A DNA stretch of 38,185 bases from an uncultured Deinococcales bacterium (lineage in GTDB: Bacteria > Deinococcota > Deinococci > Deinococcales > JAAFIG01): assembly GCA_964244895.1 (NCBI GenBank), contig CAXTKV010000022.1, positions 1-38,185 of the forward strand. The letters are read 5' to 3'. Below are positions 1 through 35,095 of this stretch, piece by piece. Numbering within the stretch: position 1 is the stretch's first letter; each line of letters begins with the position of its first letter. Under the pieces are notes generated by a model. It saw only the letters and a list, made by a program, of their open reading frames with translations, made no database searches and was not told the origin of the DNA. A program made the translations under genes and the position numbers.

Positions 1-964
1 CACCGCCCACCTCGCCGAGTTTTTCCCAGCGCCGCCCGGCGCCGGTGAAGCTCAACAATGCGTCCCTCGCGGTCTCGAACGGGATTCCCGCCCGATCCGC
101 CACGGCGAAAGCCGCCAGCGAATTGAGGATGCTGTGTTCACCCGGCACGGCCAGTTCGACCCGTCCGAGGGTCTCGCCGCGCACCTCCAGGTCATAAGAA
201 GCCGTGCCGCGCTCGAGCGTGATGCGCGTGGCGCGGTACATCGCGCCGTCCAAGAGGCCGTAGGGGATGGTCTTCAGGCCGTTCAGCATGTCGGATAAAC
301 CCGGCCAGTCGGCGCAGTGGACGACGACTTCCGCGTTTTCCGCGAAGCGCCGGAAGGCCGCGTGCAATTCCGCGACGCTGGCGTGATAGTTGTTCCTGAC
401 ATCGCCGTCCAGGCCGACGTGGTCGTCCTCGACGTTGGTGATGACCGCCGTGCGCGGGCTCATGCGCTGAAAGAACGCGTCGGATTCGTCAATTTCAGCG
501 ATGAAGTGATTTCCCTTGCCGAGCTTGGCGTTGCCGCCGATGGTCTCGAGTTCTCCGCCGACCACGACGGTCGGTTCCAGCATGGCCTTCACGAACACGT
601 GCGCGATCATGCTGGTGGTGCTGGTCTTGCCGTGCGTGCCGGTCACGCCGATGCCGTCAGCGCCGCGCATCATCTCGTCCAGCAGTTCGATGCGGCGAAT
701 CACGCGTTTGCCCGCCTCGCGCGCCGCGCTGACTTCCGGGTCGTCGCTCGAGATCGCGGTCGAGGTCACCAGCACGTCCACGTCCGGCGCGATGTGCGCG
801 GCGGCGTGACCCTCGAAGATGCGCAGGCCGCGCGTCTCGAGTTGCTTGGTCAAGAGGTTCAGCGCGACATCGCAGCCGGAGACGGTATCGCCGCGCTCAA
901 AAAGCATCTGCGCCAGGCCGCTCATGCTGATTCCGCCGATGCCCATGAAGTGGTAGTGGCTCAT
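1..964 (-). CDS. murC: UDP-N-acetylmuramate--L-alanine ligase, 5' part; runs off the window edge
   Basis: Manual translation from ATG 964 gives MSHYHFMGIGGISMSG, GTHGKTSTTSM (P-loop), EIDESD and TNVEDDH. Lies downstream of murG in the dcw cluster. Absent from the ORF track because it is truncated. Confidence 0.95.
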   Translation of the reverse strand, partial: MSHYHFMGIGGISMSGLAQMLFERGDTVSGCDVALNLLTKQLETRGLRIFEGHAAAHIAPDVDVLVTSTAISSDDPEVSAAREAGKRVIRRIELLDEMMRGADGIGVTGTHGKTSTTSMIAHVFVKAMLEPTVVVGGELETIGGNAKLGKGNHFIAEIDESDAFFQRMSPRTAVITNVEDDHVGLDGDVRNNYHASVAELHAAFRRFAENAEVVVHCADWPGLSDMLNGLKTIPYGLLDGAMYRATRITLERGTASYDLEVRGETLGRVELAVPGEHSILNSLAAFAVADRAGIPFETARDALLSFTGAGRRWEKLGEVGG

Positions 965-1083
965 CGCGCGCCCTCGGGTCCGGAGTATTCGGAAACACCG
1001 TCCAGGAAGGCGTTCGTTGATTTTAAAACGGGTGCGTAGAGGACGATGTTGTCGTCATGAGCCCGCGTTGTCGAATGCCTCAT
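961..1083 (-). CDS. Putative 40-aa bridging ORF containing repeat units (MRHSTTRAHDDNIVLYAPVLKSTNAFLDGVSEYSGPEGAR)
   Basis: Its ATG overlaps the murG stop (TGATG) and its TGA overlaps the murC ATG (ATGA). Read manually. No evidence for a protein product. Confidence 0.35.
   Translation of the reverse strand: MRHSTTRAHDDNIVLYAPVLKSTNAFLDGVSEYSGPEGAR
995..1050. repeat. Degenerate palindromic repeat doublet
   Basis: acaccgtccaggaagg, an AT-rich spacer, then tgcgtagaggacgatgtt. Confidence 0.6.
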
Positions 1084-2276
1084 CACGATTTCCCACCCCC
1101 GACCTGCACGCTGCCCGAGCGAGCGCTCGAGCCCTGCACGGCCTTCAGCACCAGTTCCGCGAGCCGTTCGGCGGCTCCTTCAGGACTGGCCTCGAGCGCC
1201 GCCGCCCGCATCGCCTGGTGGCGTTCGGGTCGCAAGCAAGACACCATACCCGAGGAAAGCGGGGTCGGCAAGCCAGAATCCCTCGACTCCGACGCACTCG
1301 GGATGCTTTGCGATTCAGCCTCGAGATCGCGCTCAGGCACGCAGATTCCGGCACCTCGAGCCTGCACAGCGAGCGCGTTTCTGGTCTGGTGATCCTCCGC
1401 GCTCGAGGCGAGCGGAATCAGGATCAACGGCACGCCGTGGTAGGCGGCGTCGCTGATCGTGCTGGCTCCGGCGCGCGTGATGCCCAGGTCGGCGGCGCTC
1501 CAGGCGACGGAGCCGTCCACGAATTCGATGCACTGATACCAGGGCAGGTGCTTGACCCGCTCCTGAAGCTGACTCAGCCGCCCGCCTCCCCGACCCGTCT
1601 GGTGCAGCACCTGGACGCCCTTGCCCTCGAGCGCTCGCTCGAGGATCGGCGGCAAGAGCGCGTTTAACAGCAGCGATCCCTGCGAGCCACCGATAATCAG
1701 CACGAGCGGCTTGTCGGGCTCGAGCCCGAGCTTTTGCAGGGCTTCAGTTTTGGGGACGCGCACCTCGCGCACGGGCATTCCGACCCAGACGGTCTTACCG
1801 CGCGGCAGTTCGTCTTGCGCGGTTTTCTCTGCCAGCGCGATGGTCTTCGCGAAGCGCGCCAGGAATTTCGTGACGATGCCGGGTCGGGCGTTCGAGTCGT
1901 GCAGCACGAGCGGCACGCTGCGCAGGATCGCGGCGGCAGCGCCCGGAAAGGACGCGAAGCCGCCGAAGCCCACGACCGCGATCGGGCGCTCGCGCCCGAC
2001 GATCTTGAGGGCATCCGCGAAGCCTGCCATCGCCCGCAGCACGGCTCGAGGATCGGGGCTGGATCGGTCGAGCTTGCCCGTGCGGACGCCGAAGAATTTC
2101 AGGTTTTCTCTCGCCGCGATGCTTTCTTCCATGCCGCCCGCGCCGCCGATGATCGCGCTCGAGAAACCGCGAGCGGAAAGCGCGCGCGCCAGCGCCACCG
2201 CCGGAAAGATGTGACCGCCCGTGCCGCCCGTGGCGAGCAGCACTGTCGGGTTGTGGGGCGCGGCGGTCGTGGTCAT
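1083..2276 (-). CDS. murG: Undecaprenyl-PP-MurNAc-pentapeptide GlcNAc transferase
   Basis: Motifs TGGTGGHIFPA, GFGGFAS, GGSQGS, TRAGASTI and DHQTRNA; dcw position. Confidence 0.97.
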   Translation of the reverse strand: MTTTAAPHNPTVLLATGGTGGHIFPAVALARALSARGFSSAIIGGAGGMEESIAARENLKFFGVRTGKLDRSSPDPRAVLRAMAGFADALKIVGRERPIAVVGFGGFASFPGAAAAILRSVPLVLHDSNARPGIVTKFLARFAKTIALAEKTAQDELPRGKTVWVGMPVREVRVPKTEALQKLGLEPDKPLVLIIGGSQGSLLLNALLPPILERALEGKGVQVLHQTGRGGGRLSQLQERVKHLPWYQCIEFVDGSVAWSAADLGITRAGASTISDAAYHGVPLILIPLASSAEDHQTRNALAVQARGAGICVPERDLEAESQSIPSASESRDSGLPTPLSSGMVSCLRPERHQAMRAAALEASPEGAAERLAELVLKAVQGSSARSGSVQVGGGKS

Positions 2277-2330
2277 GGGCTCCGTTTGATGGTTTCCGAT
2301 TGAGGCTCGAGTCGAGGGCTTATGGGCGCG

Positions 2331-2388: not shown

Positions 2389-2446
2389 GATGAGCTTCGA
2401 GGGTTCTACCGTGCGGGGCTTAAGGCAACGTAAACGCGCCCGCATT

Positions 2447-3583
2447 TCAGTCATCCCCCGAGGCCATCAGCAACCCCGACGCGCCGCTCGTCTCGCTCGA
2501 GCGCAAGACCCTGGAAGCCGCCTGAATCCAGCCGAAGGCCACGCCCAGCGCGATCATGCTCGAGCCGCCGTAAGAGACCATCGGTAGCGTCATGCCCGTA
2601 TTCGGCAGATTGCCGATGCTGACGCCCAGGTTGATGACCGCCTGCGAGACGATCATCAGCGTGCCGCTCGCGGCCAGCACCGCCATGACCTGCAAGTCCG
2701 TCTGGCGCTCGGGGTCGCGGCTGGAAGCGGCCAGCCTGGAAACGGACTCGGAGGTCTTGAAGCCCACGAAGAGGATCAGGCAGAACATCGCCACGATCAC
2801 CGCCACGCCGATCAACCCGGTCGCGTGCGCGATCGGCGCGATCACGAAATCCGTGGACGATCCGAAGAAATTCGGGCGCATCGGCACGTCCGGCCCCAAC
2901 CCGATGATGCCCGCGCGTTCCAGCACGCGCTTGGTGTTGCAGACCTGGAAGGCGTACCCCTGGCAGTCGATCTCGCCCTGGATGGTGTTGTAGAAACCCT
3001 CCAGGCGCTGTCCGACGTAGGGGAAGGCCTTGATCACGACCTGCGCGGTCGGCACGGCCAGCATGGCGGCGAACAGCAAAATCGAGAGCAACCTGAACAG
3101 GCCGATGCCCGCGATGAACATGACCGTCACGCCCAGCAAGAACACGAATACGCCCGCCGAAACGCTCGGCGCGAGCACCACCAGCCCGGACGTGAGCCCG
3201 ATCACCAGCACCGGGCCGACCAGCTTGTAGTCCAGCCCGCGCCGCGTAAAAAAATTGGTCAGGTACAGGATCAAACCCAATTTGGCGAACTCGCTGAACT
3301 GAATGTTGGCTGGCCCCAGATCGATCCAGCGCGCCACCGAACCTCCGCCGCTGACGCGCGCCAGGATCAATGTGGCCACCAGACCGACGATGGTCAACGT
3401 CCAGAATTGCGGCGCGAAGCGCACGAAGGCCTGCGGTTTGGCCCTCGAGACGATCAAGGTCACGACCATCGCCGCCAGCGTGTAGACGGCGTGGCGCGGC
3501 CATTCCTCGGGTTTGGCGGTGGCCACCCCGACCCAGCCGAGCCCGACGAGCGTGAGTTGCGCCAGCAAGAGCGTCATGTTCAT
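2447..3583 (-). CDS. ftsW: SEDS-family peptidoglycan polymerase FtsW
   Basis: Multi-pass membrane protein with RWIDLG..QFSEFAK, TDFV and PNTGMTLPMVSYGGSS. Start set at ATG 3583, which overlaps the murD stop (ATGA). Confidence 0.93.
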   Translation of the reverse strand: MNMTLLLAQLTLVGLGWVGVATAKPEEWPRHAVYTLAAMVVTLIVSRAKPQAFVRFAPQFWTLTIVGLVATLILARVSGGGSVARWIDLGPANIQFSEFAKLGLILYLTNFFTRRGLDYKLVGPVLVIGLTSGLVVLAPSVSAGVFVFLLGVTVMFIAGIGLFRLLSILLFAAMLAVPTAQVVIKAFPYVGQRLEGFYNTIQGEIDCQGYAFQVCNTKRVLERAGIIGLGPDVPMRPNFFGSSTDFVIAPIAHATGLIGVAVIVAMFCLILFVGFKTSESVSRLAASSRDPERQTDLQVMAVLAASGTLMIVSQAVINLGVSIGNLPNTGMTLPMVSYGGSSMIALGVAFGWIQAASRVLRSSETSGASGLLMASGDD

Positions 3584-4890
3584 GGTCTTCCCCCCAGCCT
3601 CGAGACGGCGTCCCTGAAGGCCGCACCCCGCGCTTTGTAATCGCTGAATTGATCGAAGCTCGTGCCGAGCGGCGCGAGCAGAACTGAACCACCTCGAGCC
3701 CGTTCCAGACCGACCTGAACGGCCTTTTGAAGCGCGAGAACGCCGTCCGGGTCGCTGCAATTGACGACCGCGATTCCGGCTGCCGCGAACGGCTTCGAGA
3801 ACGCCTCGCCCGCCTCGCCGAAGCGCAGGATCACGGCGACCTTGCGCCTGGCGACTTCGAGCAACGGATCGAGTTCCGCGCCCTTGTCGCGCCCGCCCAG
3901 AATCCAGGCGATCGGCGCGGGCGCGTTCTCGAGCGCGGCCTGCACCGCGATGGTGCGCGTGGCGATGGAATCCTCGATGAAGCGCGTACCGTCGATCACA
4001 GCGATCGTCTCGAAGCGTCCGGGCACGCCGGGGAAATCCAGCAGACCCCTTCGCAGCGCCTCCGGCAAGACGGGCACGCCGATGCGCTCGAGGTAGAGCA
4101 TCGAGGCGATCACGGCCAGACGCGCGTTCATCGGGTGCTGGTGCGCGGGCAGCTCCGAAAGCTCCAGCACGACCGTTCCGTCAATCATCGCGATCGGCCC
4201 GGATTCGGGCGCGCGGATGACGCGAGCCTGGGTTTCGCGCGCCAGGGACAGACTCGCCGGGATCACCAGCGCATCGTCGGGCAAGAGGTTCTCGACGATC
4301 ATCCACTTGGCCGCGTGGTACGCCTCTAAAGACCCGTGATCCGTGACGTGATCCACGCCGATGTTCGTGATCACCGCGATGGACGGCCTGTAGGACACGA
4401 TCCGCTCGAGTTGAAACGAACTGAGTTCCGCGACCACCACCGACGCTTCGCGCGCGACCGTCAACAAGGGCGGATCGAAGTTGCCGCCCGGCAACGCGTT
4501 GACACCCTGCGCTTGCAGCAGGTGCGCGATCAGCGCGGTCGTGCTGCCCTTGCCCGCCGTGCCCGTCACCCCGATGGTCGGCGTGGGCAGCGTGCGGTAC
4601 GCCAGTTCCGCCTCGCCGATGGTCTCCAAGCCCGAGTCGCGCAGCTTGACCAGATCGGGGTTGCGGTACATCACGCCCGGTGCGGCCACGACCAGATCGA
4701 ACTGTTGCGCACCCAGGCTGGTGGCGCGCGGAAAGCCCCTCGAGATCGCCTCCTGTGCGCCCAGCGGCGCCTCCGTCTGGTCGAACCACGCACCCGTCCA
4801 GCCGAGCTGCTCGAGGTGCCGCACCACGCCCAATCCCGAGCGCCCCAGCCCGTAGATCAGCACGCGTCTGGGTGTCAGGTCGAGCTTCAC
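3580..4890 (-). CDS. murD: UDP-N-acetylmuramoyl-L-alanine--D-glutamate ligase
   Basis: Motifs GLGRSG, GVTGTAGKGSTT, ELSSFQL, ILGGRDKG and SFDQF..Y..RG..F. Confidence 0.95.
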   Translation of the reverse strand: MKLDLTPRRVLIYGLGRSGLGVVRHLEQLGWTGAWFDQTEAPLGAQEAISRGFPRATSLGAQQFDLVVAAPGVMYRNPDLVKLRDSGLETIGEAELAYRTLPTPTIGVTGTAGKGSTTALIAHLLQAQGVNALPGGNFDPPLLTVAREASVVVAELSSFQLERIVSYRPSIAVITNIGVDHVTDHGSLEAYHAAKWMIVENLLPDDALVIPASLSLARETQARVIRAPESGPIAMIDGTVVLELSELPAHQHPMNARLAVIASMLYLERIGVPVLPEALRRGLLDFPGVPGRFETIAVIDGTRFIEDSIATRTIAVQAALENAPAPIAWILGGRDKGAELDPLLEVARRKVAVILRFGEAGEAFSKPFAAAGIAVVNCSDPDGVLALQKAVQVGLERARGGSVLLAPLGTSFDQFSDYKARGAAFRDAVSRLGGRP

Positions 4891-5147
4891 GGCCTCACCC
4901 CAGATTCGCCATTTACGAGAACACCGTGCTGGACAGCGTTTTCTCGAGTCTCGAGAACACCGTCCCAGACGGTGTTCTCGAATTTCGTCCCTCCCAACAT
5001 CGTTGGGGTGGCTCGAGCATCAGCCTCTCCGATGCGAGAGACGGAGGGGTCGCTGTGAGACAATCCTCTTTCCTCGAGTTGACCGTTCCAGACGGTCTTC
5101 CTCTGGCCTCGAGCATTCCCGATGGTCAGACGCCAACCCCGAGTCAT
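4887..5147 (-). CDS. Putative 86-aa bridging ORF built largely from repeat units
   Basis: ATG 5147 overlaps the mraY stop (ATGA) and its TGA overlaps the murD GTG (GTGA). It is the C-terminal part of track ORF 4887..6272. Confidence 0.4.
   Translation of the reverse strand: MTRGWRLTIGNARGQRKTVWNGQLEERGLSHSDPSVSRIGEADARATPTMLGGTKFENTVWDGVLETRENAVQHGVLVNGESGVRP
4919..5099. repeat. Cluster of three palindromic repeat units
   Basis: Perfect 14-bp arms TCGAGAACACCGTC-cca-GACGGTGTTCTCGA at 4951-4981, with further units at 4919-4940 and 5081-5099. Confidence 0.9.
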
Positions 5148-6079
5148 CGCGGCGTCACCCCCGTGCGGATCGCCCAGGCGAGCGCCGTGCCGACGGCGGT
5201 GATGACCCAGAAGCGGCTCGTGACCTTGCCCTCGACCCAGCCGATCAGCTCGAAGTGGTGGTGGATCGGCGTCATCCGAAAAATACGTTTGCCCTCGCCC
5301 AGCGCGCGTTTGGTGTACTGGAAGTACGGCACCTGAATCATCACGGACAGCACTTCCAGGATCGGGATGATCGCGGCCAAAGGCAGCACCCACATCCAGC
5401 CCTGCGTGATGTACGTGCCCGCCAGGATGCCGCCCAGCGCGTGCGATCCGGCATCGCCCATGATGATCGAGGCGGGTCTCGAGTTGAACCAGAGGTAACC
5501 GATCAGCGCGCCGATCGTGATGCCCGCCAGCGGCGACCCGACGATCAAGGGCACCAGCGCGATGGCGACCACGCCCGCCGCCAGACCGTCCAGACCGTCC
5601 GTGAAGTTGACCGCGTTGGCCGCACCGATCACCACGAAGGTGTAAAGCACGATGTCCAGCCATTGCCGTCCGGCGTGCGAGAAATCCCTGGCGACGACCA
5701 CGGCGAAGATGAACGCCACGATGAATTGCAGCGGAAACTTGACCCGCGCGGGCATCCCGCCGCGCACGGTGGCGCCCATCAATTTTGATCGCACCAGCAG
5801 GTAATCGTCGGCGAAACCGATCAGCCCGAGCGCCATGCTCATCACCACGGTCGCCCAGCCTTTGGTGTCCGACTGACCCGGAATCCCGACCAGCGCGAAC
5901 CAGACCGCGAAGATCACGAGCGTGAAGGCCACGCCGCCCATGGTGGGCGTGCCCTCCTTGATCAGGTGTCCCTGCGGCCCGTCCTGGCGCACGCGCTGAC
6001 CCCAGCCCCTGGACTTGGCGACGCCCTGAAACACACCGACCGCGACCCAGGACACCAGCGCGGAAATCACCAGCTTCAC
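5144..6079 (-). CDS. mraY: Phospho-N-acetylmuramoyl-pentapeptide transferase
   Basis: Motifs KEGTPTMGG, GFADDY, NAVNFTDGLDGL, MGDAGS and FRMTPIHHHFEL. Confidence 0.97.
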   Translation of the reverse strand: MKLVISALVSWVAVGVFQGVAKSRGWGQRVRQDGPQGHLIKEGTPTMGGVAFTLVIFAVWFALVGIPGQSDTKGWATVVMSMALGLIGFADDYLLVRSKLMGATVRGGMPARVKFPLQFIVAFIFAVVVARDFSHAGRQWLDIVLYTFVVIGAANAVNFTDGLDGLAAGVVAIALVPLIVGSPLAGITIGALIGYLWFNSRPASIIMGDAGSHALGGILAGTYITQGWMWVLPLAAIIPILEVLSVMIQVPYFQYTKRALGEGKRIFRMTPIHHHFELIGWVEGKVTSRFWVITAVGTALAWAIRTGVTPR

Positions 6080-6975
6080 GGCGCACCGCCGAAAGGAATT
6101 CTCGCGAGTCTCTCGAGAATTGCACGTCCGGACTGGGGCGGGCTGAAGACCTCGAGCGCGGTTCTGGACAGGACAGCCACGGTGTCCTTGTTGGCGGCAA
6201 TCGCGAGCGGTACCGCCTCGAGCCCGGCGCTGGCCACGACCGAACCCCGATAGACCGCCTCGAGCGCCGCACCCTGGGCGCGGTAGGTGATGCTGTTGGC
6301 GCGGGCGGCGGGGCGCGGCAGGAATTCGTAACTCAGGTCGGTCGGCACGATGTTGTAACGCGAGGGTTCAAACGGAATGCCGGGGTAGATGCGGTCGATC
6401 AGCGTCGCACCGTTCTCGTCCAGGCGGTAAACCAGGCTCTGGTCCTGTGCTTCGCTCAGCACGTAAGTGACTTCGCCCGCCTCGAGCACATCGCGCACGA
6501 TGCCCGGAAGTTGCGCGATCTGCGATCCGCCGTAACCCAGCACGGTGCTGGCGGTCGTGAAGATGTACTTCGACGAGAGCCGCGCGGGTCGTCCCGGCAG
6601 GCTGATGCTTTCCGGCACGCCCAGCCCGCGCTGCACCAGTCCCGCGCCCGGCAACGCCACCCACGGCGCGCCATCGCGCCACGCGACGCTCGAGACGAGG
6701 CTGGACGGCGCGAGGCGTTCCGGGCTGTAAGCCGGTGGCAGGGCCGCGAAGGCGTTGCCGGCGATGGCCCACGCGATCTCGCCGCGCGCGCTCAGGCTCA
6801 GGCTGGGTTCCAGGTCGCGCACGGAAAGCGCCGGGGCGCAGGCCGTCACGCTCAACGCGAGGCCGAGCGAGATGGCTGAAAGAAGCTGGGCAGCCCGCGA
6901 TCTCGAGAACACCGTCCCGGACGCAAATTTAAAAACGCGTCCCAGACGGTCTTTTTGCGTTTCAGAGGCGCGCAC
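6076..6975 (-). CDS. Uncharacterised lipoprotein within the dcw operon
   Basis: GTG 6975 is preceded by GGAGGT at 5-nt spacing and overlaps the murF end. A hydrophobic stretch ends in lipobox-like VTAC. Its stop overlaps the mraY GTG. Confidence 0.75.
   Translation of the reverse strand: MRASETQKDRLGRVFKFASGTVFSRSRAAQLLSAISLGLALSVTACAPALSVRDLEPSLSLSARGEIAWAIAGNAFAALPPAYSPERLAPSSLVSSVAWRDGAPWVALPGAGLVQRGLGVPESISLPGRPARLSSKYIFTTASTVLGYGGSQIAQLPGIVRDVLEAGEVTYVLSEAQDQSLVYRLDENGATLIDRIYPGIPFEPSRYNIVPTDLSYEFLPRPAARANSITYRAQGAALEAVYRGSVVASAGLEAVPLAIAANKDTVAVLSRTALEVFSPPQSGRAILERLARIPFGGAP
6902..6953. repeat. Palindromic repeat doublet inside the 5' coding region of the lipoprotein gene
   Basis: ctcgagaacaccgtcccggacgca-aatttaaaa-acgcgtcccagacggtctt. 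Confidence 0.85.
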
Positions 6976-8266
6976 GGATGACCTCCGAGAGCTTGCCCAG
7001 ACCGATCCGCAAGGAACCCTTGACCAGCACCGTGTCCGAGGGCTCGAGCAGGGCGGTGACTTCCGAGATCGCGTCCTGAACGGTCGGCAATGCGATGGCG
7101 CTCGCGCCGGATTCGCGGGCAGCCCCCGACAGAACGCCCGCCCACTCACCGACGGCGATCACGACCTGCGCGACCCGTCCGGCGCGTTTGCCGATCTCGC
7201 GGTGGTAGGTTTCGCTGGCCTCGCCGAGTTCGCGCATGTCGCCCAGCACGGCGATCCTGCGACCCATCTGGCGCTCCAGCACGTCCAGCGCGGCGTTGAC
7301 GGACAGCGGGTTGGCGTTGTAGGCGTCGTCGATCAGCGTGTAGTGGCCGCGCTCGAGGCGCATCCGTCCGCCGGGAACATCCACGTCCGCGATTCTCGAG
7401 ATCGCGCCCGGAAGCGGCAGGCCGAATTTCTCGGCCAGGCTCAGCCCGAGCAGGCTGGCTTCAGCGACCTTTTCGCTCGGGCTCGAGACCCGCACGCGGT
7501 GACCGCGAAAGCTGTAGCTGGCCTCGGAGTCGGTCAACTCGAGCTGATCGCCCCGGAAGCTCGCGTCCGCGCCGAAGCCGTAGGTCTCGAGGTCGGGGTA
7601 ATATGGGGCGCACGACTCCGAGACGAGTCCCGCCCGGCCCGCGAAGATGCGGCCTTTTTCAAAAGCCACACCCTCGAGCGATCCCAGAAACTCGAGGTGC
7701 GCCGGGCCGACCGACACGACCGCGCCCAGGTCGGGATTGACCAGTCGCACCAGTTGATCCATCTCGCCGATGCGGTCGATGCCCATTTCGATCGCGTGCG
7801 TGGAATCGGGCCGCACGCTCGAGAGCAGGTAGCAGGCGATGGCGTTCAGGGTGTTCAGGTTGCCGGGCGTCTTGCCGCAACCGAGCGCGGCGGCCACGAA
7901 TTCCTTGGCGGTCGTCTTGCCCGCCGATCCGGTGATGCCGACGAGCCGCGCGCCCGACGCGTCGCGCCAGTTTCGCGCCCAGCCGTGCAGCGCGTTGGCC
8001 GCGTCACCGACCCGCACGCTCCGAGGGGCATCCTGGTCGGTCAGCACGAACGGCGCGCCCTGTTGCAGCGCCTGGTCTATGAAAGCGTTGCCGTGCGTGG
8101 TTTCGCCCGGCAGGGCGGCGAAGGCCGTGTTCGGGTCGGCGTTTCTCGAGTCCCAGGTGATGGCCTGGGCGGGTCTGGCGTCGCTGGAGACGGAGTGCAA
8201 ACCGAAAGCGGCAAACAGGTGCTGGCTGGCCTGAGGATCGAGCGGGTTGGGGTTCGCTCGGGTCAC
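6962..8266 (-). CDS. murF: UDP-N-acetylmuramoyl-tripeptide--D-Ala-D-Ala ligase
   Basis: Motifs WDSR, GITGSAGKTTAKE, GNLN, IEMG, DDAYNANP, LGDMRELG and VLVKGS. Confidence 0.96.
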   Translation of the reverse strand: MTRANPNPLDPQASQHLFAAFGLHSVSSDARPAQAITWDSRNADPNTAFAALPGETTHGNAFIDQALQQGAPFVLTDQDAPRSVRVGDAANALHGWARNWRDASGARLVGITGSAGKTTAKEFVAAALGCGKTPGNLNTLNAIACYLLSSVRPDSTHAIEMGIDRIGEMDQLVRLVNPDLGAVVSVGPAHLEFLGSLEGVAFEKGRIFAGRAGLVSESCAPYYPDLETYGFGADASFRGDQLELTDSEASYSFRGHRVRVSSPSEKVAEASLLGLSLAEKFGLPLPGAISRIADVDVPGGRMRLERGHYTLIDDAYNANPLSVNAALDVLERQMGRRIAVLGDMRELGEASETYHREIGKRAGRVAQVVIAVGEWAGVLSGAARESGASAIALPTVQDAISEVTALLEPSDTVLVKGSLRIGLGKLSEVIRARL

Positions 8267-8427: not shown

Positions 8428-9914
8428 TCACTTCTTGGCCTTGATGTCCTTCGGCGCGATGCCCCAGTGGGCCAGCACTTCCTCCGCGATCTCGCGGAAG
8501 ACGGGCGCGGCCACCAAGGATCCGTGAATCTGCTTTTTCGGGTTGTAGATTTCCACCACCATCGTCACGCGCGGTTTGTCGCACGGAAAGAAGCCCGCGA
8601 AGATCGCGCCGAAGACATCGCTCGAGTAGTGACCGTTGATGGCCGTCTGCGCCGTACCCGTCTTGCCGCCGATGCAGTACCCCGGGATCACCGCCAGGTG
8701 CGGCAGGCCGTCCTCGACGGCGGCGCGCAGCATGTCGCGCGTGGTGCGGGCCGCCTGGACGCTCAGGATGCGTTTGGACGGCGCAGCCGGCCCGCCCTCG
8801 ATCAATCGCGGCGGGATCAGCAGACCGTCGTTCATCAGCACGCTGAAGGCGGTCGCCAGTTGCAGCGTCGTGGTCGATTCGCCCTGACCGAAGGTCGCGG
8901 TCGCGTGATCGATCGGTCGCCACGTCCGCCAGTCGCGCACCAGCCCGCGCGCCGGCGATGCGCCCTCGAGCTCGATCGGTTGGCCGAAGCCGTACTCCGT
9001 CAGGTACGCGTGCAGGGTCTGGGCGGACAGACGGTTTTCGGTCAGCTTCGAGATGCCCACGTTGGATGAATATCGCAGGACTTCCTTGAGCGTCAGCACG
9101 CCCTTGTGCCTGATCGCGTCGTTGATGATGTGACCCGTGACGTTGCGCCACATCGGGGCCTCGACGGTCGTGTCCGGCGTGGCCGCGCCCTCGTTGACCA
9201 GCGCCGCCGCGACCAGGGCTTTCATGGTCGAACCCGGCTCGAACTGGTTGCGGAACGGACGGTTCAACCACTGCGCACCGTCGTAACGCTCTCGGCGTTC
9301 CGGGTTGAACCGCGGGTAACTGGCCACCGCCAGCAGGCGTCCCGTCCCCGCCTCGAGCGCCACGACGCTGCCCGCGTCGGCGTTCTGGTCGAGAATCTGT
9401 TTTTCCAGGGTGGCCTCTGCGGTCGCCTGAATCGTCGGGTCGATCGTCAAGGTGACATCCTGACCCGCGCTGAGGGTTTTTTCAGAAAAATACTCGACGC
9501 CCTCTAAACCCTTATCTCGGCCCTTGAATCCCAACACCTGACCCGCCAGCGAACCCTGAGGGTAGCGCCGCACCTGTCCCGCCAGCAGTTCCGCGCTCGA
9601 GATGCTCGAGTCGCCCTTGCGGGGCTCGAAGCTTTCAGCCATGACGGTGCCGTCGCGCAAGCGAATCGTTCCGCGCAGGTGGCCGGGCGTGACGGTGGCT
9701 TCGGCCAGGTTCCATTCCAGTCGGGCGTAACTGACCATCAGCGCGCCGACCGCCAGCACCATCAGCGCGCCCAGGAACCGCACCCGAGAACCGATCACCT
9801 GCGGCCCGGAGAGTTCCGGGAAGACCATCTGGGACGCATTATCAGGAATGCCGTCCTGGACGGTACTCTTGGCTTGCGTCTGGGCTTTGGCGGGCTGACC
9901 TGGACGTTCGCGCG

Positions 9915-9924
<10 letters not shown>
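8428..9924 (-). CDS. ftsI: Class B penicillin-binding protein (FtsI/PBP3-like transpeptidase)
   Basis: Catalytic motifs STMK (SxxK), SSN (SxN) and KTG, plus an N-terminal TM helix. Start set at ATG 9924, overlapping the ftsL end. Confidence 0.92.
9821..9866. repeat. Palindromic repeat doublet inside the ftsI coding sequence
   Basis: aagaccatctgggacgca-ttatcagga-atgccgtcctggacggtac, translated as STVQDGIPDNASQMVF. Confidence 0.85.
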
Positions 9925-12101: not shown

Positions 12102-12130
12102 AAGACGAAACCCCGCCATCTCTGACGGGG
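12102..12130 (-). terminator. Probable intrinsic terminator of rnpB
   Basis: CCCCGTCA-GAGA-TGGCGGGG hairpin followed by TTTCGTCTT on the minus strand. Confidence 0.65.
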
Positions 12131-12527
<397 letters not shown>

Positions 12528-23296: not shown

Positions 23297-23432
23297 GCCC
23301 GATTCTACGTTCCCGGCGTGAGAACGCGCACGAAAAAGCGCGTCGGGTGAAGAAAATCTGAAGATGCTCGAACGCCGCCAGAGCGTGAGCGTCCGCGCCT
23401 TCGCGTCGCGTGGCGCGTGGTTTACTGGCGGC

Positions 23433-23723
23433 GTGAGCCAGCCGACCACCTCCAAACCGCGCCGCATGACGGCGCTCGTCAAGGGCGAGGTTCAGGGCGT
23501 GGGCTACAGGCGCTTCGTGCAGCGCCGCGCGCAGGATCTGGGTCTGGCGGGTTTCGCCGAAAACCTGACCGATGGCAAGGTCGAGGTCGTGGCCGAAGGG
23601 CAGACGGACGCGCTGGAATCCTTGCTGCACTGGCTTCGTCGTGGTCCGCCGCACGCCCAGGTGCGCGAGGTCGAAGTCCAGTACGCCGAAACGACCGGGC
23701 TGGCCGGGTTTCACATCTACTGA
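23433..23723 (+). CDS. acyP: Acylphosphatase
   Basis: Motifs [35 protein letters not shown] and GFHIY. Start is GTG 23433 or ATG 23466. Confidence 0.93.
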
Positions 23724-28636: not shown

Positions 28637-28642
28637 GGTTGG

Positions 28643-28806: not shown

Positions 28807-29688
28807 ATGAGACTGATCGACGTACAGCGCTTGCTGATCCTGGCCGCCGTGTGGGGCGCGAGTTTCATCTTCTTTCGGGTGATCGTGCCCGTGCTGGGGC
28901 CGATCGCGACCGTCGAGGTTCGTGTGGTGCTGGCCGGAATCGCGCTTCTGGCGTTCGCGGCAATCACCGGAGCCGACCTGGGATGGCGCGAGCGCTGGGT
29001 CTGGTACGCCATCGTCGGCGTTTTGAACAGCGCCATCCCGTTCGCGCTGATCGCCTTCGCGGAGGTGCGTCTGACGGCGTCGCTGGCGTCGATCCTAAAC
29101 GCCAGCACGCCGTTGTTCGCCGCGATCCTGGCCGCCGTTTTTTTCAAAGATCCACTCACGCTTCCCAAGATCGCGGGGCTGGCGCTGGGCTTCGGTGGCG
29201 TGGTCGTGCTGGTCGGTTGGAGCCCACTGGAACCGGGGTTGATGACCTGGCTGTCCGTGCTGGCGACCCTGGCCGCGAGCTTCTTTTACGGTCTGGCGGG
29301 CAACCTGGCGCGCGCCAGACTGAAGGGCGCTCCGGCGCTCGGGCTGGCGGTCGGATCTCAGGTCGCCTCGAGCCTGGTCTTGCTGCCGTTCTTGCCGTGG
29401 AACCCGCCGCTGGCTGCACCCGATCTGACGGTGATCCTCTGCGTTCTGGGCTTATCGCTGGTCTGCACGGCCTTCGCGTACATCCCCTATTACCGTTTGA
29501 TCCTCGATCTGGGCGCGACGCGAGCCTCGACCGTGACGTTTATCGTGCCGATCTTCGGCGTGCTGTGGGGCGCGCTGTTCCTGGGTGAAGGTGTCGGGGT
29601 CGAAAAACTCGTGGCCTGCGCGATCATTCTGGCCGGGGCGGGGTTGGTGACGGGCGTGATCGGTGGGCCGCGCGCGGTTCGGGCTTGA
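28807..29688 (+). CDS. EamA/DMT family transporter
   Basis: About 10 TM helices, LAAVWGASF, NSAIPF, SILNASTPLF and VTFIVPIFGVLWG; GGAGG before ATG 28807. Confidence 0.92.
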   Translation: MRLIDVQRLLILAAVWGASFIFFRVIVPVLGPIATVEVRVVLAGIALLAFAAITGADLGWRERWVWYAIVGVLNSAIPFALIAFAEVRLTASLASILNASTPLFAAILAAVFFKDPLTLPKIAGLALGFGGVVVLVGWSPLEPGLMTWLSVLATLAASFFYGLAGNLARARLKGAPALGLAVGSQVASSLVLLPFLPWNPPLAAPDLTVILCVLGLSLVCTAFAYIPYYRLILDLGATRASTVTFIVPIFGVLWGALFLGEGVGVEKLVACAIILAGAGLVTGVIGGPRAVRA

Positions 29689-29963
29689 ATTGGGCGCACG
29701 CGTCCATCCTCGAGTCGTGTTTCTCGAGGAACCCCAGAATGGGGGCCAGCCAAGATCGTGTGGCCGGGTTCTTGAGACCGCCGGGGCAGCCCGAGACCCT
29801 GAAATGCCGCGTCATCATCAAAGCACATCGTCCAGTACGCATTTCAGCGCTCGCGCGCCGGACGATCTTCTGGTGCGGCGCTCCGCGCCAGTTGGTCTCG
29901 AGAACAATTGCGTGGGGCACGCAAGGGTTTCGTGACGATCAGGGTTTCATACTGATCCGGTGA
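29685..29963 (+). CDS. Putative 92-aa bridging ORF spanning the EamA to HD-GYP gap
   Basis: TTG overlaps the EamA stop (TTGA) and TGA overlaps the HD-GYP GTG (GTGA). Contains a repeat unit (~29825-29842) and three CTCGAG sites. Confidence 0.3.
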   Translation: MNWAHASILESCFSRNPRMGASQDRVAGFLRPPGQPETLKCRVIIKAHRPVRISALARRTIFWCGAPRQLVSRTIAWGTQGFRDDQGFILIR

Positions 29964-31303
29964 GTTCCGATCCGCTCTCGAGCCTCGCCGAGGCCGCACG
30001 CCTCCTGCCCGCCGTACCGAGCGGACGCGTACTGGCGGCAGTCTGGAGTCTCGAGGGTGAACGCAGCGCGTTCAGGGCGCTCAAATCGACCAGCTTGCGG
30101 CTGGCCAGCATCCGCGATGCTTTCGACGCCATGAGTCTCTTGGACGACGTGCTGGACGAAGCTTTGAAGCTGGTCGATGCGGAACGCGGCGCGCTGGCGC
30201 TGGTCGATGGCGAAAAACTGAACGTGATCATCTCGAGGATGCGCGTGGACGGTGACGCCGGAAAACACGAGGTTCGCGTCTCGCAGAGCTTGCTCGAACG
30301 CGTCGTCTCGAGCGGCGAGGCGATCGTCACGACCAACGTCCAAGAGGACCCGAACTACGCGCCCAGCGCCAGCATCGAGGCGCTCTCGATCCGGTCGGTG
30401 CTGGCGGTTCCGTTGAGCGTGCGCGACCGCGTCATCGGCGCGCTCTATGTGGACACGCAGTTGACGCAGCGCAGCTTCTCGGACGCGGACGCTTCGATGC
30501 TGGCGACCTTCGCGGCTCAGGCGGGTACGGCGGTCACGATGGCCAGATCCATCCGCGACGAACACGATCAATACGTTTCTCTGGTCAAGACAATGCTGAA
30601 CACCCTCGACGCGCGCGATCCGTACACGGCGGGCCATTCCGCCCGCGTCGGCGAGTACACGCGCCGCCTGGCGGGGGCGCTCGGCTGGAAGGAAACCGAT
30701 CAGGAACGCGCCTTGTTCGCCGGCTGGGTTCACGACATCGGCAAGATCGGCATTCGGGATCACTACCTCTACAAAGAAGGGCGTCTGACCACCGAAGAGC
30801 GCCGCATCATCGAGGAACATTCAATCATCGGTGAGCGCATTCTGCGCACGGCCACGCGCGGCTTCGAGGAGATCCTGCCCGCCGTGCGCAACCACCACGA
30901 ACGCTGGGATGGTAAGGGCTACCCGGACGGGCTGGCTGGCGATGAGATTCCGGTGTTGGCTCGCATGGTCAGCATCGCGGATGCCTTCGATGCGATGACC
31001 ACCTCCAGACCCTACGCGCCGCGCCGCAACTGGGTCGAGGCTTTCCAGGTACTGCAGCACGAATCTGAGCATCAGTTCGACCCTGGGCTCGTTCCGGTCT
31101 TGATCGCCGCGCTCGTCGGCGAAAGGGAAGCCAACCTGGACGGCGACCCAGATCGCGTCCAGGCGATCGTTCCGGAAATGGAACTCGGCGACTGGTCGAA
31201 AAAAATGGCCAGCCTTTCTTCCGGCATCACCGTCGAGCGGCACGTGTTTCAACTCAGGTCGAACGCGGAACAAAAAGCCCTGCTCGAGCTGGACAAGATC
31301 TAA
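29960..31303 (+). CDS. GAF plus HD-GYP domain protein (putative cyclic dinucleotide phosphodiesterase)
   Basis: GAF (SIRSVLAVPL...IGALYVD), DPYTAGHSARV, HDIGK, HHERWDGKGYPDGL and ADAFDAMTTSRPY. Confidence 0.93.
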   Translation: MSSDPLSSLAEAARLLPAVPSGRVLAAVWSLEGERSAFRALKSTSLRLASIRDAFDAMSLLDDVLDEALKLVDAERGALALVDGEKLNVIISRMRVDGDAGKHEVRVSQSLLERVVSSGEAIVTTNVQEDPNYAPSASIEALSIRSVLAVPLSVRDRVIGALYVDTQLTQRSFSDADASMLATFAAQAGTAVTMARSIRDEHDQYVSLVKTMLNTLDARDPYTAGHSARVGEYTRRLAGALGWKETDQERALFAGWVHDIGKIGIRDHYLYKEGRLTTEERRIIEEHSIIGERILRTATRGFEEILPAVRNHHERWDGKGYPDGLAGDEIPVLARMVSIADAFDAMTTSRPYAPRRNWVEAFQVLQHESEHQFDPGLVPVLIAALVGEREANLDGDPDRVQAIVPEMELGDWSKKMASLSSGITVERHVFQLRSNAEQKALLELDKI

Positions 31304-31518
31304 GCGTTCCGCACGGCTTTCTGACGTTTCTCGCTCGAGAAGCGCCCTGAATATTCGCGGGGTCTTCGTGGTGCGGAATTTCGGAGCTTGACCTCGAGAC
31401 ATCCCGGCTTCTGGACTGCCCGGCCAGCACCTGGCGGGCGAGCCAACGCGACGAGAACGCGCTAGCATGGCGGTGTGAACCACCGCGACGACGATCACCG
31501 TCCTCTCGAGGTCATTGA

Positions 31519-31831
31519 ATACGCTGCGAGCCTCGCCGCCGGGCGCGCTCGGCGGCGTCGCACGAAGGGACGGCGCTCTACGCGGCGCTGATCGAGGAAG
31601 CACCGTTCGGCGTGTATCTCGTGGACGGCGCGTTCCGGGCGCGTGTTCGAGCGCTTTTACCGCGCCGATAAGTCGCGCTCGAGGGGCGACGGTCCCTGCG
31701 GGACGGGCCTGGGCTTGCCGATCGCGCGCCAGATCGCCAGGCAACTCGGTGGCACGGTTCATCTCGAGAGCGAGGTCGGGAAGGGCACAAAGGCCGTGAT
31801 CCGGTTACCCGTCATCGAAGACGATGCGTGA
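31519..31831 (+). pseudogene. Remnant of a PAS sensor histidine kinase
   Basis: One frame reads ALYAALIEEAPFGVYLVDGAFR (PAS start) and stops at TAA. Another frame from 31643 reads VFERFYRADKSRSR..GTGLGLPIARQIA..GGTVHLESEVGKGT (HATPase F/G2 boxes). No H-box or N-box. Confidence 0.75.
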
Positions 31832-31934
31832 AGGCTCGAGACGAAAGGCCCCCTGGACTCCTCGGGCGTCCGGGATCGAGCCGTCTCAACACCCTTCGGT
31901 GACTCGGACTGATTGATCGCGACGGGTATCTGTT

Positions 31935-32114
31935 GTTCCGTCCTGAACGATAAATTCCTTGATGCCGTCCGGATTGGTGTTCTCGATGATCCCGCCCGAA
32001 TTCGCTCCCGAGGCGCGGCTCATGATTTGACGACCGTCGCGGCAGTGGTAAACGACGAACCCGGAGCCGACAGCCTCCGGGTTCGTCTCGATGCGTACCG
32101 TACTGGACGGTGTT
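31935..32114. repeat. Palindromic repeat units downstream of tRNA-Ile
   Basis: gttccgtcctgaacgat (~31935), atgccgtccggattggtgt (~31962) and gtaccgtactggacggtgtt (32095-32114). Confidence 0.7.
32050..32087 (-). terminator. Hairpin terminator downstream of tRNA-Ile
   Basis: Perfect 13-bp stem gacgaacccggag/ctccgggttcgtc (32054-32087), followed by GTTT on the minus strand. Confidence 0.7.
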
Positions 32115-32118
32115 CTTT

Positions 32119-32195
32119 TGGTGGGCGATCCCGGACTCGAACCGGGGACCTCCCCGTTATCAGCGGGGTGCTCTAACCAGCTGAGCTAACCGCCC
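32119..32195 (-). tRNA. tRNA-Ile (anticodon GAU), 77 nt, CCA encoded
   Basis: GGGCGGTTAGCTCAGCTGGTTAGAGCA-CCCCG-CTGATAA-CGGGG-AGGTCCCCGGTTCGAGTCCGGGATCGCCCACCA. Confidence 0.97.
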
Positions 32196-32226
32196 ATCAG
32201 CGCACCCGAAAAATGGGGCGAAGCGG

Positions 32227-32255
32227 ATGGTATCACGCCCCCCAGAACGCGTCAA
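32227..32255 (-). promoter_or_regulatory. Sigma70-type promoter of tRNA-Ile
   Basis: TTGACG-17 nt-TACCAT with a TG extension. Confidence 0.8.
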
Positions 32256-32297
32256 GCGCGATCAGAAAGGACTCGTGAACACCCGTAAACGCCGGGT

Positions 32298-33071
32298 TCA
32301 GCGAGTGTTGGTCGGACTGGCCGCTGGGGTCGCGGTGGGTTGCTCGAGTGGCGTGGTGGCGCGGGCGCGGCGGCGACGGCGGCGGGTTGGGGTGGCGGTC
32401 GTGGTGGTGGTCGTGCCGTCCGGGTTGATGGTTTCGGTCACGGCGGGCGGTGGTGGTGGCGGCGCGGGCGGTGAGCGGAAGTTTTCCTGGTAGATGTTGC
32501 CGACGCTGTCCTTGACGACCACGGTCACGGTGCGGGTGCGCGGCACGACCCGGTAGAACGGCACGGTCTGCGCGGGCGCGATGTTGAGCTGAATGCCGTC
32601 CACGGTGATCTGCGCGACCTTGACGTTGTCTTTGGCCGTCCCGGTGATGGACACCGTGTTGATCTGGCCTTCGAGCTGAACGTTTTGCAAACTGGGTTTG
32701 GCCGTGTCCGAAAGCAGTTCCAGATCCCGTTCGGTGACCCTGCCGCTCAAATCCACGGCGCGCAGCGCATACGAGGTGCGACCGGGCTCGAGGCTGGCGG
32801 CGGTGAAGGCGAAGCGCACGAGTTTCTTGCCGCGCTGGTTCTTGAAGGCCGGATCGGAGAGCAGGTCCGTGTCGCCCACGTTGAGTTTGTTGATGCCCCG
32901 GTCGTCGTAGGCGTAACCCTTGACGACGGTTTTGGTGTTCGACAGGATCACGCCCGCCAGGGGTTGGGTGATGACGATCTGCGGGTTGAAGTTGTCCACT
33001 TCCCTCGAGCAACCCGCGAGGAAGACCAGGGGGGCGATCAAGACGAGGCTCGAGGTCAGGACGGCGCGCAC
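32298..33071 (-). CDS. Lipoprotein with probable Ig-like beta domains and a Pro/Thr/Arg-rich tail
   Basis: Signal peptide with lipobox LAGC and repeated xGxAxDDxxV patterns. GTG 33071 lies 6 nt after TATACT; in-frame ATG 33110 is an alternative start. Confidence 0.75.
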   Translation of the reverse strand: MRAVLTSSLVLIAPLVFLAGCSREVDNFNPQIVITQPLAGVILSNTKTVVKGYAYDDRGINKLNVGDTDLLSDPAFKNQRGKKLVRFAFTAASLEPGRTSYALRAVDLSGRVTERDLELLSDTAKPSLQNVQLEGQINTVSITGTAKDNVKVAQITVDGIQLNIAPAQTVPFYRVVPRTRTVTVVVKDSVGNIYQENFRSPPAPPPPPPAVTETINPDGTTTTTTATPTRRRRRRARATTPLEQPTATPAASPTNTR

Positions 33072-33150
33072 GCGGTCAGTATATGGGCTGTCGGCTGAGG
33101 TCATTCTCATCGTCGGGCGAAGGAGGGTTCCTGATCGGGATGGATTGGGG

Positions 33151-33206
33151 GAAGTCCGTCCTGGACGGACTTCTCGAGACTGCGTATTTTGCGTCCAGGA
33201 CGGTAT
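33151..33206. repeat. Palindromic repeat doublet
   Basis: GAAGTCCGTC-ctg-GACGGACTTC (perfect 10-bp stem) and ttgcgtccaggacggtat. Confidence 0.85.
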
Positions 33207-33216
33207 CCGTGAGCGA

Positions 33217-33726
33217 TCAACCCGGGTGAGAAGGAATCAAGTATTCGACGATCACCGCATCGCGCCAGACGCCATCGAGTTGCGCGTGCTTCTGGTAGAT
33301 GCCGACCTCGCGGAAGCCGAGGCTGGCGCACAGGGCGCGCGAGGCGGTATTTTCGGGAAAAATCCGGCTCAGGATCTTCCAGAACCCGGCTCGTTCGCAG
33401 ACCATCAAGAATTCCGCCACGAGCGCCCGTCCGACGCCGCGCCCGTGGGCTTCTGATGCGACGTAGACGCTAAACTCCGCGATGCCCGCATAGCATTCTC
33501 GGGCGCGGTAGCCCGAGGCGTGAACCCAACCCACGACCTGCGCGTCCCGTTCCGCGACCAAGAGCGGGAAACGGGCGGTGTCCTCGAACCACGCTTGTAT
33601 GTCGGCGGCGCTGCGTTCGCGCGTCTCGAAGGTGCTCTGGCGACCCCGGATGCCCTGGTTGTAAATCGCGGCGATGGCGGGTGCGTCCTCGGGCCGCGCG
33701 GGACGAATCAGAATGGTACGGTTCAT
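33217..33726 (-). CDS. arsN1: GNAT N-acetyltransferase, ArsN1 / phosphinothricin acetyltransferase-like
   Basis: IRPARPEDAPAIAAIYNQGI..TFET, EFSVYV..HGRGVG, IFPENTASRAL and GFREVG..KH..LDGVWRD; ars cluster context. Confidence 0.8.
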   Translation of the reverse strand: MNRTILIRPARPEDAPAIAAIYNQGIRGRQSTFETRERSAADIQAWFEDTARFPLLVAERDAQVVGWVHASGYRARECYAGIAEFSVYVASEAHGRGVGRALVAEFLMVCERAGFWKILSRIFPENTASRALCASLGFREVGIYQKHAQLDGVWRDAVIVEYLIPSHPG

Positions 33727-34973
33727 GGCTCAGTATGCGCGATGGCGAGGGCCGAGACGGGGTGTCGTCCGGCCTGCCAGATCGAGAGAGCGGAAATCCC
33801 GGAGGCCGCGGCCAGCACCCAGAGGGCCGGATCGTAGCGACCCGCCGCATCGTGTAGCACGCCGACACCCAAGGGCGCGAGCATCGCCGTGATCGAGGTG
33901 AAGGTCGTCAGGTTGCCGCTGATGCTGCCGTAGTGGGCTGAACCGTAGATCTCCGCGACCAGTGAAGCCTTAGCGAGCGACATTGAACCGTTCGCTAGCC
34001 CGAACGAGGCGGCGAAAACCCACGGTGCGAGCGGCCCGGAGATCACCAGCAGCGCGAGCATGCCCAGGCCGTGCAGTCCGCAAAAGACCGCGCTCAGACC
34101 GAACAAGGACAGCCGCTCGCTGAGGGGCGTGTAGACGATCCGGCCCGCCAGTTGCCACAGACCGATCGATCCGGCCACGGCGGCCACCAGGGCCGGACTG
34201 TAGCCCCGCTCCGACAGGAGCGCCACCAGGTGCGCGGCGGCGGCCACGACCGTCAGGCTCGAGAGGCTGAACGCGAGCGCCAGCCACCAGAAGGTCGGGG
34301 TACGCAGGGCATCGCGGTGCGTGATGCTCGAGGGGAAGGCCGCTTCAGCGTGCGCCTCGAGCGCATCGCCATCGGGCGCGAGGCCCATGTCCTGCGGACG
34401 GCGACGAATCACGAAAGCGTGGGCAGGAACGGTGGCCAGGGCCAGAATCACCGCCAGAATCGGCAGGGCCTGGCGCCAACCGAATTGGGCGATCAGCCAG
34501 GTGCAGAGCGGAATGAAGATCGTACTGGCGAGGCCCGCCGCCAGCGTCACGATCAGCATCGCGCGCGATCGGTGCCGTCGGAACCAGACGGCCAGCACGG
34601 TGAAGGCGACCGGATACTGCACCAGGCTCGAGGCGAGGCCAATACCGACCCAAAGCAGGTAGAAAACCCACAGATCGCGCACGAAACCCCAAGCCAACAC
34701 GAGCCCTGCACCCAGAATTGAGCCGAAGGTCATCAGGCCTCGCGCTCCGTGGCGATCCAGCCAGCGTCCGACCGACACGGCCACCACGCCCTGAACGAGC
34801 TGAGCCAACGAGAACGCCAACGAGGTCTGGGTGCGGTTCCAGCCGAGTTCGGCCTCCATCGGTTTGACGAACGCGCCGAACGCGTAATACAGCACGCCGT
34901 AGCCGACGGTCTGCGTCAGCGCCAACGCCCACGCGATCCGCCAACCGTAAAAGCCCGTTTTCGGGGCGCTCAC
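33723..34973 (-). CDS. MFS transporter, ArsK-like candidate
   Basis: 12-TM pattern, ALTQTVGYGVLYYAF, MFS motif A GRWLDRHGAR. GTG 34973 follows GGAG; ATG 35006 is an alternative start. Confidence 0.85.
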   Translation of the reverse strand: MSAPKTGFYGWRIAWALALTQTVGYGVLYYAFGAFVKPMEAELGWNRTQTSLAFSLAQLVQGVVAVSVGRWLDRHGARGLMTFGSILGAGLVLAWGFVRDLWVFYLLWVGIGLASSLVQYPVAFTVLAVWFRRHRSRAMLIVTLAAGLASTIFIPLCTWLIAQFGWRQALPILAVILALATVPAHAFVIRRRPQDMGLAPDGDALEAHAEAAFPSSITHRDALRTPTFWWLALAFSLSSLTVVAAAAHLVALLSERGYSPALVAAVAGSIGLWQLAGRIVYTPLSERLSLFGLSAVFCGLHGLGMLALLVISGPLAPWVFAASFGLANGSMSLAKASLVAEIYGSAHYGSISGNLTTFTSITAMLAPLGVGVLHDAAGRYDPALWVLAAASGISALSIWQAGRHPVSALAIAHTEP

Positions 34974-35095
34974 GCGCGCTCCGAACCGCGATCTCGAGGC
35001 CACCATTGATGGGAATACCGTCCTGGACAGTGTTTTTTGAAATCAAAAGAAATGCGTCCAGGACAGTATTCTCGGGTACGACAGCTTTTCGTCAC
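34970..35095 (-). CDS. Putative 41-aa bridging ORF (MTKSCRTREYCPGRISFDFKKHCPGRYSHQWWPRDRGSERA)
   Basis: GTG overlaps the arsN2 stop (GTGA) and TGA overlaps the MFS GTG (GTGA). Read manually. Confidence 0.35.
   Translation of the reverse strand: MTKSCRTREYCPGRISFDFKKHCPGRYSHQWWPRDRGSERA
35014..35070. repeat. Palindromic repeat doublet
   Basis: Outer arms AATACCGTCCTGGAC ... GTCCAGGACAGTATT (14/15 complementary). Confidence 0.88.

Follow-up and report, generated by a model that had tools for sequence, protein, structure and literature searches.

Reading frames that bridge repeat-filled gaps between coupled genes in an uncultured Deinococcales bacterium appear to be kept for their frame

What becomes of two translationally coupled genes once repetitive DNA has been inserted between them? 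The question is raised by a 38,185-nucleotide stretch of the genome of an uncultured Deinococcales bacterium (GenBank assembly GCA_964244895.1, contig CAXTKV010000022.1, positions 1 to 38,185; hereafter the window), in which an initial annotation had noted five gaps between co-directional genes, each containing a palindromic repeat and each crossed by one small open reading frame (ORF) that begins on the upstream stop codon and ends on the downstream start codon. We use the term relay ORF for a reading frame that runs from the stop of the upstream gene to the start of the next gene across inserted DNA. The comparisons presented here make it fairly probable that relay ORFs are throw-away sequences in which selection maintains the reading frame, allowing the downstream gene to go on receiving ribosomes.

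Genes were called across the whole 91%-complete assembly (5.12 Mb, 328 contigs) with our own hexamer-based, relay-blind gene caller, which yielded 4535 genes. Co-directional gaps of 30–400 nt were then examined, 985 of them repeat-containing and 732 repeat-free; 10 and 3 gaps, respectively, were excluded for N in the shuffle and modulo-3 analyses. A strict bridge required a start codon overlapping the upstream stop, at −4 or −1, from which the first stop reached overlapped the called downstream start; the null was obtained by inserting one or two bases in mid-gap (+1/+2 frame shift). Strict bridges occurred in 81 of the 985 repeat gaps, compared with 17 and 15 after the two shifts (binomial p 9e-17), a five-fold excess; the repeat-free gaps showed a smaller one (32/732 versus 16 and 10; p 5e-4), to which real small genes may have contributed. 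NTGA stands at both ends of 179 gaps, distributed 54/85/40 by length modulo 3; the in-frame gaps were open in 66 of 85 cases versus 27.9 in dinucleotide shuffles, and the out-of-frame gaps remained near the shuffle level (19.2 of 54 versus 13.9; 13.0 of 40 versus 11.5). Register was well defined, 63 of 220 ATG/GTG overlap starts ending at +4 (null 11.2) and nine at +1 (null 0.2). The expectation that doubly coupled ORFs would exceed shuffled levels was thus borne out, and it is well supported that roughly 60–65 junctions genome-wide carry selected relays, once the 16 or so chance cases are subtracted from the 81 strict bridges. Chance would account for about one strict relay in five. Relays range from 52 to 355 nt, some with several stacked repeats.

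The excess is confined to ATG and GTG starts preceded by a Shine–Dalgarno (SD) sequence in the upstream gene, 67 of 149 of which were bridged against 5.2 expected, an excess of about thirteen-fold. SD-less ATG/GTG starts (5/71 versus 5.0 expected) and TTG starts (3/109 versus 6.3) were bridged at chance frequency. SD sequences at least as strong as −4.4 kcal/mol lie ahead of 74% of the 81 relay starts and 73% of 245 direct −4 starts, as against 22% of 145 convergent gene ends carrying the same motif. In SD-matched comparison, the downstream binding site was predicted to be more paired after relays (0.63, n=61) than in the reference set (0.55, n=150 of 362; p 2e-4). GTG is the start codon in 50 of the 81 genes after relays, 120 of the 245 direct overlaps and 268 of 894 unbridged repeat gaps. 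Protein extension was considered as the main alternative outcome of repeat insertion and rejected: C-terminal repeats with an overlap were found in 0 of 10 cases, N-terminal ones in 3 of 12, and in-frame fusions in 26 of the 985 repeat gaps.

Translation of the window confirmed all five ORFs, free of internal stops and overlapping both neighbours as described; the remaining particulars of the initial picture held only in part. The caller reproduced the proposed downstream start at four of the five junctions (964, 4890, 29960 and 34973), but placed that of the lipoprotein at 33071 instead of 33110. Repeat copies of at least 14 bits lie in four of the five gaps, but the EamA>HD-GYP gap shows only one degenerate copy (about 29828–29840, under 12 bits), and two of the ORFs begin with TTG, a class that bridges at chance level. 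Pfam supported murC, murG, murD, mraY, EamA, the GAF-HD protein, both GNATs and MFS, with zero matches for all five small ORFs and for the putative lipoprotein. The features concerned, followed by the two RNA genes of the window, are as follows.

2..964, minus strand: murC-type Mur ligase, downstream gene, running past the window start; ATGA start, SD −6.4 kcal/mol
961..1086, minus strand: relay ORF 1 (supported case), 40 aa from ATG 1083 (TGATG) or 41 aa from the in-frame GTG 1086 (GTGA); SD −9.9 within murG, stop overlapping the murC ATG
993..1015: repeat unit within relay ORF 1; 17.5 bits by position weight matrix
1083..2276, minus strand: murG (GT28), upstream gene
3580..4890, minus strand: murD, downstream gene; GTGA start, SD −6.0
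4887..5147, minus strand: relay ORF 2 (supported case), 86 aa; ATGA start, SD −9.9 within mraY
4919..4977: two repeat units within relay ORF 2 from the repeat scan, with a third, weaker copy near 5078–5100
5144..6079, minus strand: mraY, upstream gene
28807..29688, plus strand: EamA transporter
29685..29963, plus strand: 92-aa ORF that starts with TTG (SD −2.4) and contains only a degenerate repeat; probably due to chance
29960..31303, plus strand: GAF and HD-domain protein (HD-GYP of the initial annotation)
32298..33110, minus strand: putative lipoprotein, start uncertain (33110 or 33071), SD at neither
33107..33220, minus strand: 37-aa ORF, TTG start, without SD (+0.6), spanning two repeat units (33151–33208); probably a chance ORF
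33217..33726, minus strand: GNAT acetyltransferase (arsN1 of the initial annotation)
33723..34973, minus strand: MFS transporter, downstream gene; GTGA start, SD −5.8
34970..35095, minus strand: relay ORF 5 (supported case), 41 aa, spanning a repeat doublet (35013–35071); GTGA start, SD −4.0
35092..35517, minus strand: GNAT acetyltransferase (arsN2 of the initial annotation), upstream gene
12128..12526, minus strand: RNase P RNA class A (Rfam)
32122..32195, minus strand: tRNA (Rfam)

The relays at murG>murC, mraY>murD and arsN2>MFS are well supported as instances of the selected pattern. The ORFs at EamA>HD-GYP and arsN1>lipoprotein are probably due to chance, because they have TTG starts, a weak SD or none, and gene pairs that are not conserved: HD-GYP adjoins EamA in one of 13 relative loci, without a bridge there, and the lipoprotein adjoins arsN1 in none of 11. 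Relay ORF 2 spans several predicted hairpins (fold z −3.6), and relay ORF 1 folds no better than shuffles (z −1.0). Repeat-free junctions of the same operons had been described as direct overlaps, and six of the called co-directional junctions in the window are indeed direct −4/−1 overlaps, but several other repeat-containing gaps, among them ftsW>murG and the two gaps flanking the gene at 6962–8266, lack a bridge from the −4 position.

If relays are selected, what is it in them that is kept? Between two relatives (G016 and G008), the murG>murC relay differs by nine non-synonymous and one synonymous changed codons, compared with 15 and 51 in murG itself. G+C content at third codon positions (GC3) is 0.62 in relays and 0.83 in genes, and the hexamer coding score is positive in 2 of 81 relays. 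These values support selection that would act on the frame of a relay and not on its peptide, with no signal of peptide constraint in the murG>murC relay. The repeat units within relays (124) are likewise read in all six frames (22/30/9 and 22/18/23), so that both halves of the proposal, that the repeat is read in different frames and orientations and that frame matters more than peptide, find support. Relays as real small genes were rejected as a candidate, given that 5/5 lack a Pfam match and so few score as coding.

Orthologous junctions in relatives show what stood at these sites where the insert is absent and what replaced it where another insert is present (junction types with fewer than four loci were left out of this survey). 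Of 20 relatives, 10 have a direct overlap at murG>murC. In all 9 same-family relatives that carry an insert there, the junction is bridged by sequences of other repeat types, the bridges ending at +4 in two and at +16 in seven; the remaining relative, which belongs to another family, shows an in-frame start located on the stop. In one genus, the gaps of six genomes measure 19, 91, 127, 127, 133 and 268 nt, all open and all 1 modulo 3, one of them with an extra, later insert of 141 nt; because the six share ancestry, the lengths are taken as a succession of changes, not as independent origins. None of 13 relatives has a gap at mraY>murD, the spacing being −4 in 12 and −28 in one, and the insert of 253 nt is therefore particular to this lineage. 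Direct overlaps at insert-free junctions and frame-keeping length changes, both anticipated at the outset, were therefore found. The murD>ftsW and murB>ftsQ junctions are direct in most relatives and bridged in four genomes each, and two of the bridged genomes use a different frame, in which the ORF runs to +11. The arsN2>MFS junction is a direct GTGA overlap in one relative (G015), carries a different, 16-codon bridge in a second (G006), and has a short gap with a 3-codon ORF in a third (G005). A contig of ~91% identity covers positions 3–2917 of the window, in an alignment with 16 gaps, and nuo, another conserved operon, could be found in 18 of 19 genomes of the family.

A broader ortholog test took G006 as reference (2.0 of its 5.1 Mb used). 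It comprised 24 ortholog junctions that overlap in G006, one of which was dropped for N, leaving 23; where the repeat is present here, 9 of the 23 are strictly bridged (null 0.5) and 12 loosely (null 2.0). The reverse test gave bridges in 3 of 11 junctions in G006 (null 0.8) and 3 of 7 in genus g5 (null 0.5).

The repeat itself is a 13–14-bp quasi-palindrome with 2205 core matches in the assembly, mostly intergenic and frequently arranged as inverted doublets with a spacing of 25 or 35 nt, the former being the commonest. The doublet pattern occurs 178 times in this genome and in none of 40 relatives; one 1.5-kb metagenome contig matched. Within relays, the median distances from the repeat to the two ends are 34 and 40 nt. 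The palindrome is a passenger and does not encode the relay frame. Other repeat types also occupy relay junctions, including tandem 7-nt units in inverted arrays and a palindrome flanked by GTAG (contigs C93, C85 and C9 of this genome; loci L010–L016 and L002–L003 of relatives). The hexamer CTCGAG is present in 21,883 copies in the 5.12-Mb assembly.

Several further observations concern related arrangements or the remainder of the window. On contig C223, the gap after the plus-strand gene starting at 2431 contains a two-step chain, in which a repeat-bearing relay leads to an 89-codon ORF and this in turn to the ATGA of the next gene; the 89-codon ORF looks like a small passenger gene. At 9820–9918 (minus strand), a repeat copy lies in a frame that begins with a TTG on the upstream stop and continues uninterrupted into the gene at 8428–9828, and this frame may be an N-terminal extension of that gene and not a relay. 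A 3599-aa ORF (12683–23482, minus strand) lies upstream of the cell-wall cluster. Fragments at 31436–31831 (plus strand) possibly belong to a decayed gene and, judged by motif, may represent the C terminus of a histidine-kinase ATPase domain. Rfam returned nothing in the window beyond the RNase P RNA and the one tRNA, and a promoter and terminator scan of 29500–35300 remained at shuffle level.

Which processes other than selection for ribosome hand-over could leave such frames behind? Chance, or small genes that went unrecognised, probably explains the two TTG cases and part of the repeat-free class; as a general account it is refuted by the overall excess, the shuffle comparison and the junctions that overlap in G006. 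The SD-dependent excess and, for small genes in particular, the missing Pfam matches and the low GC3 also count against it, and we give it next to no credence. A design encoded by the element, or a duplication of the target site or junction, would supply both overlaps together with the open frame. This is in essence the model published for mycobacterial interspersed repetitive units (MIRUs), as excerpts of two reviews present it (PMC12548453, PMC3184786), and it would yield NTGA at both ends. We consider it very improbable, because the relay ends bear no duplication signal and the repeat lies tens of bases inside. Among 66 relays, identity around the two TGA ends averages 1.48 versus 1.31, no excess, and their first bases are unlinked; relay ends have no similarity to the flanking gene ends, and neither the six frames in use nor the spread of lengths would suit a fixed element. 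Duplication as the source of both overlaps was rejected accordingly, although an old duplication of 4 nt may have decayed at the relay ends.

A relay might instead be a relic: once an N-terminal, in-frame extension of the downstream gene, it would have changed frame when a start arose within that gene, and would be open now only through incomplete decay. Such a history accounts for the inherited SD and start, in-frame fusions do occur, as counted above, and some strong-SD starts (21 of 82) already dead-end; yet the frame persists through near-complete sequence turnover and repeated length changes in one genus, strong-SD starts in repeat gaps lead to 43 strict relays but to only 2 fusions, and relays extend to 355 nt with several stacked repeats, which together render the relic unlikely. 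We are similarly doubtful that selection concerns ribosome coverage of the mRNA, which would guard against termination by Rho or at hairpins and against RNase cleavage, and not hand-over. Coverage would fit downstream genes that retain an SD of their own, the stable hairpins that relays cross, the ends at +7 to +16 tolerated in relatives and the presence of Rho in 39 of 40 relatives. Coverage alone needs no exact stop-on-start register, however, yet 63 of the 220 overlap starts end at +4, against a null of 11. Rho, moreover, has no match in this 91%-complete assembly, yet is found in those relatives, and an assembly gap may be responsible; avoidance of polarity, as first proposed, is accordingly no more than a candidate role of relays. 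Coverage and hand-over may also act together.

Hand-over through a throw-away frame would, in our favoured account, come about in the following way. In relatives without an insert, the junction is a direct NTGA overlap. DNA was presumably inserted at or just behind the coupled start, leaving the old SD and start with the upstream gene; a stepwise origin of the relay via an in-frame N-terminal extension is plausible. A separate SD and start now serve the downstream gene, and from the old start runs a junk frame whose stop lies on the new start or close to it. Inserts and later indels that break the frame would be purged by purifying selection. A ribosome would reinitiate at the old overlap, translate through the repeat hairpins and terminate on the new start, where it could either reinitiate or expose the downstream binding site by unfolding it.

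Several results pull the other way. The downstream gene has its own SD in 81% of relays, so that downstream genes could initiate alone. Of the 24 junctions overlapping in the reference relative, 11 fall in no bridge class, about half of these showing looser continuity by eye and four to five none. Strict bridges in the G006 sample are only weakly in excess, at 17/559 versus 8.8, or 13/71 versus 3.6 with an SD. In the genus g5 sample, which includes dcw regions, their number is not significant (6/127 versus 3.9), and g5 gaps without an adjacent ortholog pair in this genome yielded 1 of 94 against 2.7. All start sites are calls of our own gene caller, and related genomes are not independent events. 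A stronger form of the hypothesis, in which repeats persist in operons when a ribosome can relay across them, is not supported as a general condition for persistence between co-directional genes, because 785 of the 985 repeat gaps fit none of the bridge classes tried and 21 of 82 strong-SD overlap starts end inside the gap without bridging.

The relays provide comparative evidence of selection on translational coupling itself in core operons, which is beyond the reach of single-pair reporter assays. They predict translated small ORFs with functionless peptides, which is relevant to small-proteome annotation, and with dozens of constructs already made by nature they would allow reinitiation and RNA unfolding to be told apart as models.

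How do these arrangements compare with known systems? Repetitive extragenic palindromic (REP) sequences and REPINs are recognised by a GTAG or GGAG tetranucleotide beside the palindrome and by an associated Y1 transposase (RAYT). The flank consensus of the present repeat lacks the GTAG/GGAG motif, and the transposase family PF01797 has no match in the 91%-complete assembly. The likeness is that of a short, lineage-specific, high-copy intergenic palindrome, often in inverted doublets, as excerpts of the 2011 review describe (PMC3184786). Termination–reinitiation at NTGA/TGATG overlaps mediates translational coupling, according to the excerpted text of Huber et al. 2019 (PMC6728339), and relays share its geometry, with the SD in the upstream 3' end at the frequencies given above for relays and direct overlaps, the two TTG cases excepted. 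They differ in that they would use it twice in series, around a non-functional ORF.

Although the initial annotation knew of no description of the arrangement, relays are not new in kind: MIRUs and the mini-ORFs of integron attC sites precede them. In a literature search, mostly of open-access papers, neither a case from Deinococcota nor a genome-wide study testing whether bridge ORFs are selected for frame was found. Short ORFs in attC sites relieve the block that a hairpin imposes on the next gene, by termination–reinitiation, and the peptide sequence of ORF-11 at attI1 is of little importance, as stated in excerpts of a review (PMC8876359, citing Jacquier 2009 and Hanau-Bercot 2002). The likeness lies in a short ORF whose translation would lead through a palindromic hairpin to the next gene. 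So far as those excerpts go, the integron ORFs are parts of recombination sites, whereas the present ones stand in core chromosomal operons for cell-wall synthesis and other functions, with no integron.

MIRUs come closest. In the excerpted accounts, they are units of 40–100 bp, with 40–50 per genome (PMC12548453, PMC3184786), flanked by tetranucleotide direct repeats and overlapping the adjacent genes (2011 review, PMC3184786); they seem to insert at start codons, with an internal ORF coupled at −4 spacing that likely limits effects on expression (2025 review, PMC12548453), a model of Supply et al. 1997 that both reviews summarise. Relays share with them a repeat-bearing insert at an operon junction and a short ORF overlapping the neighbouring stop and start at −4, and they sit where the junction without an insert is a direct overlap. 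A MIRU, however, carries the ORF itself, whereas here the repeat is read in six frames and the relay ends outside it; the direct repeats ascribed to MIRUs have no counterpart in a duplication signal among the 66 relays; and the core repeat has about 2200 copies, mostly outside relays, with unrelated inserts bridging the same junction in relatives. Relays thus work like MIRUs but are not MIRUs, because the two defining features tested were not found. The comparison turns the 1997 proposal into a testable rule on the host side. A wider generalisation, on which we are evenly divided, would treat relays as a host-imposed, frame-only gene class with at least 60 members in this genome, independent of any element and kept at the same junctions across genera despite near-complete sequence turnover. 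If so, the range of end positions that junctions tolerate would provide a natural measure of the distance rules of coupling, and MIRUs would become one special case of a rule by which DNA inserted between coupled genes persists mainly where ribosomes are able to traverse it.

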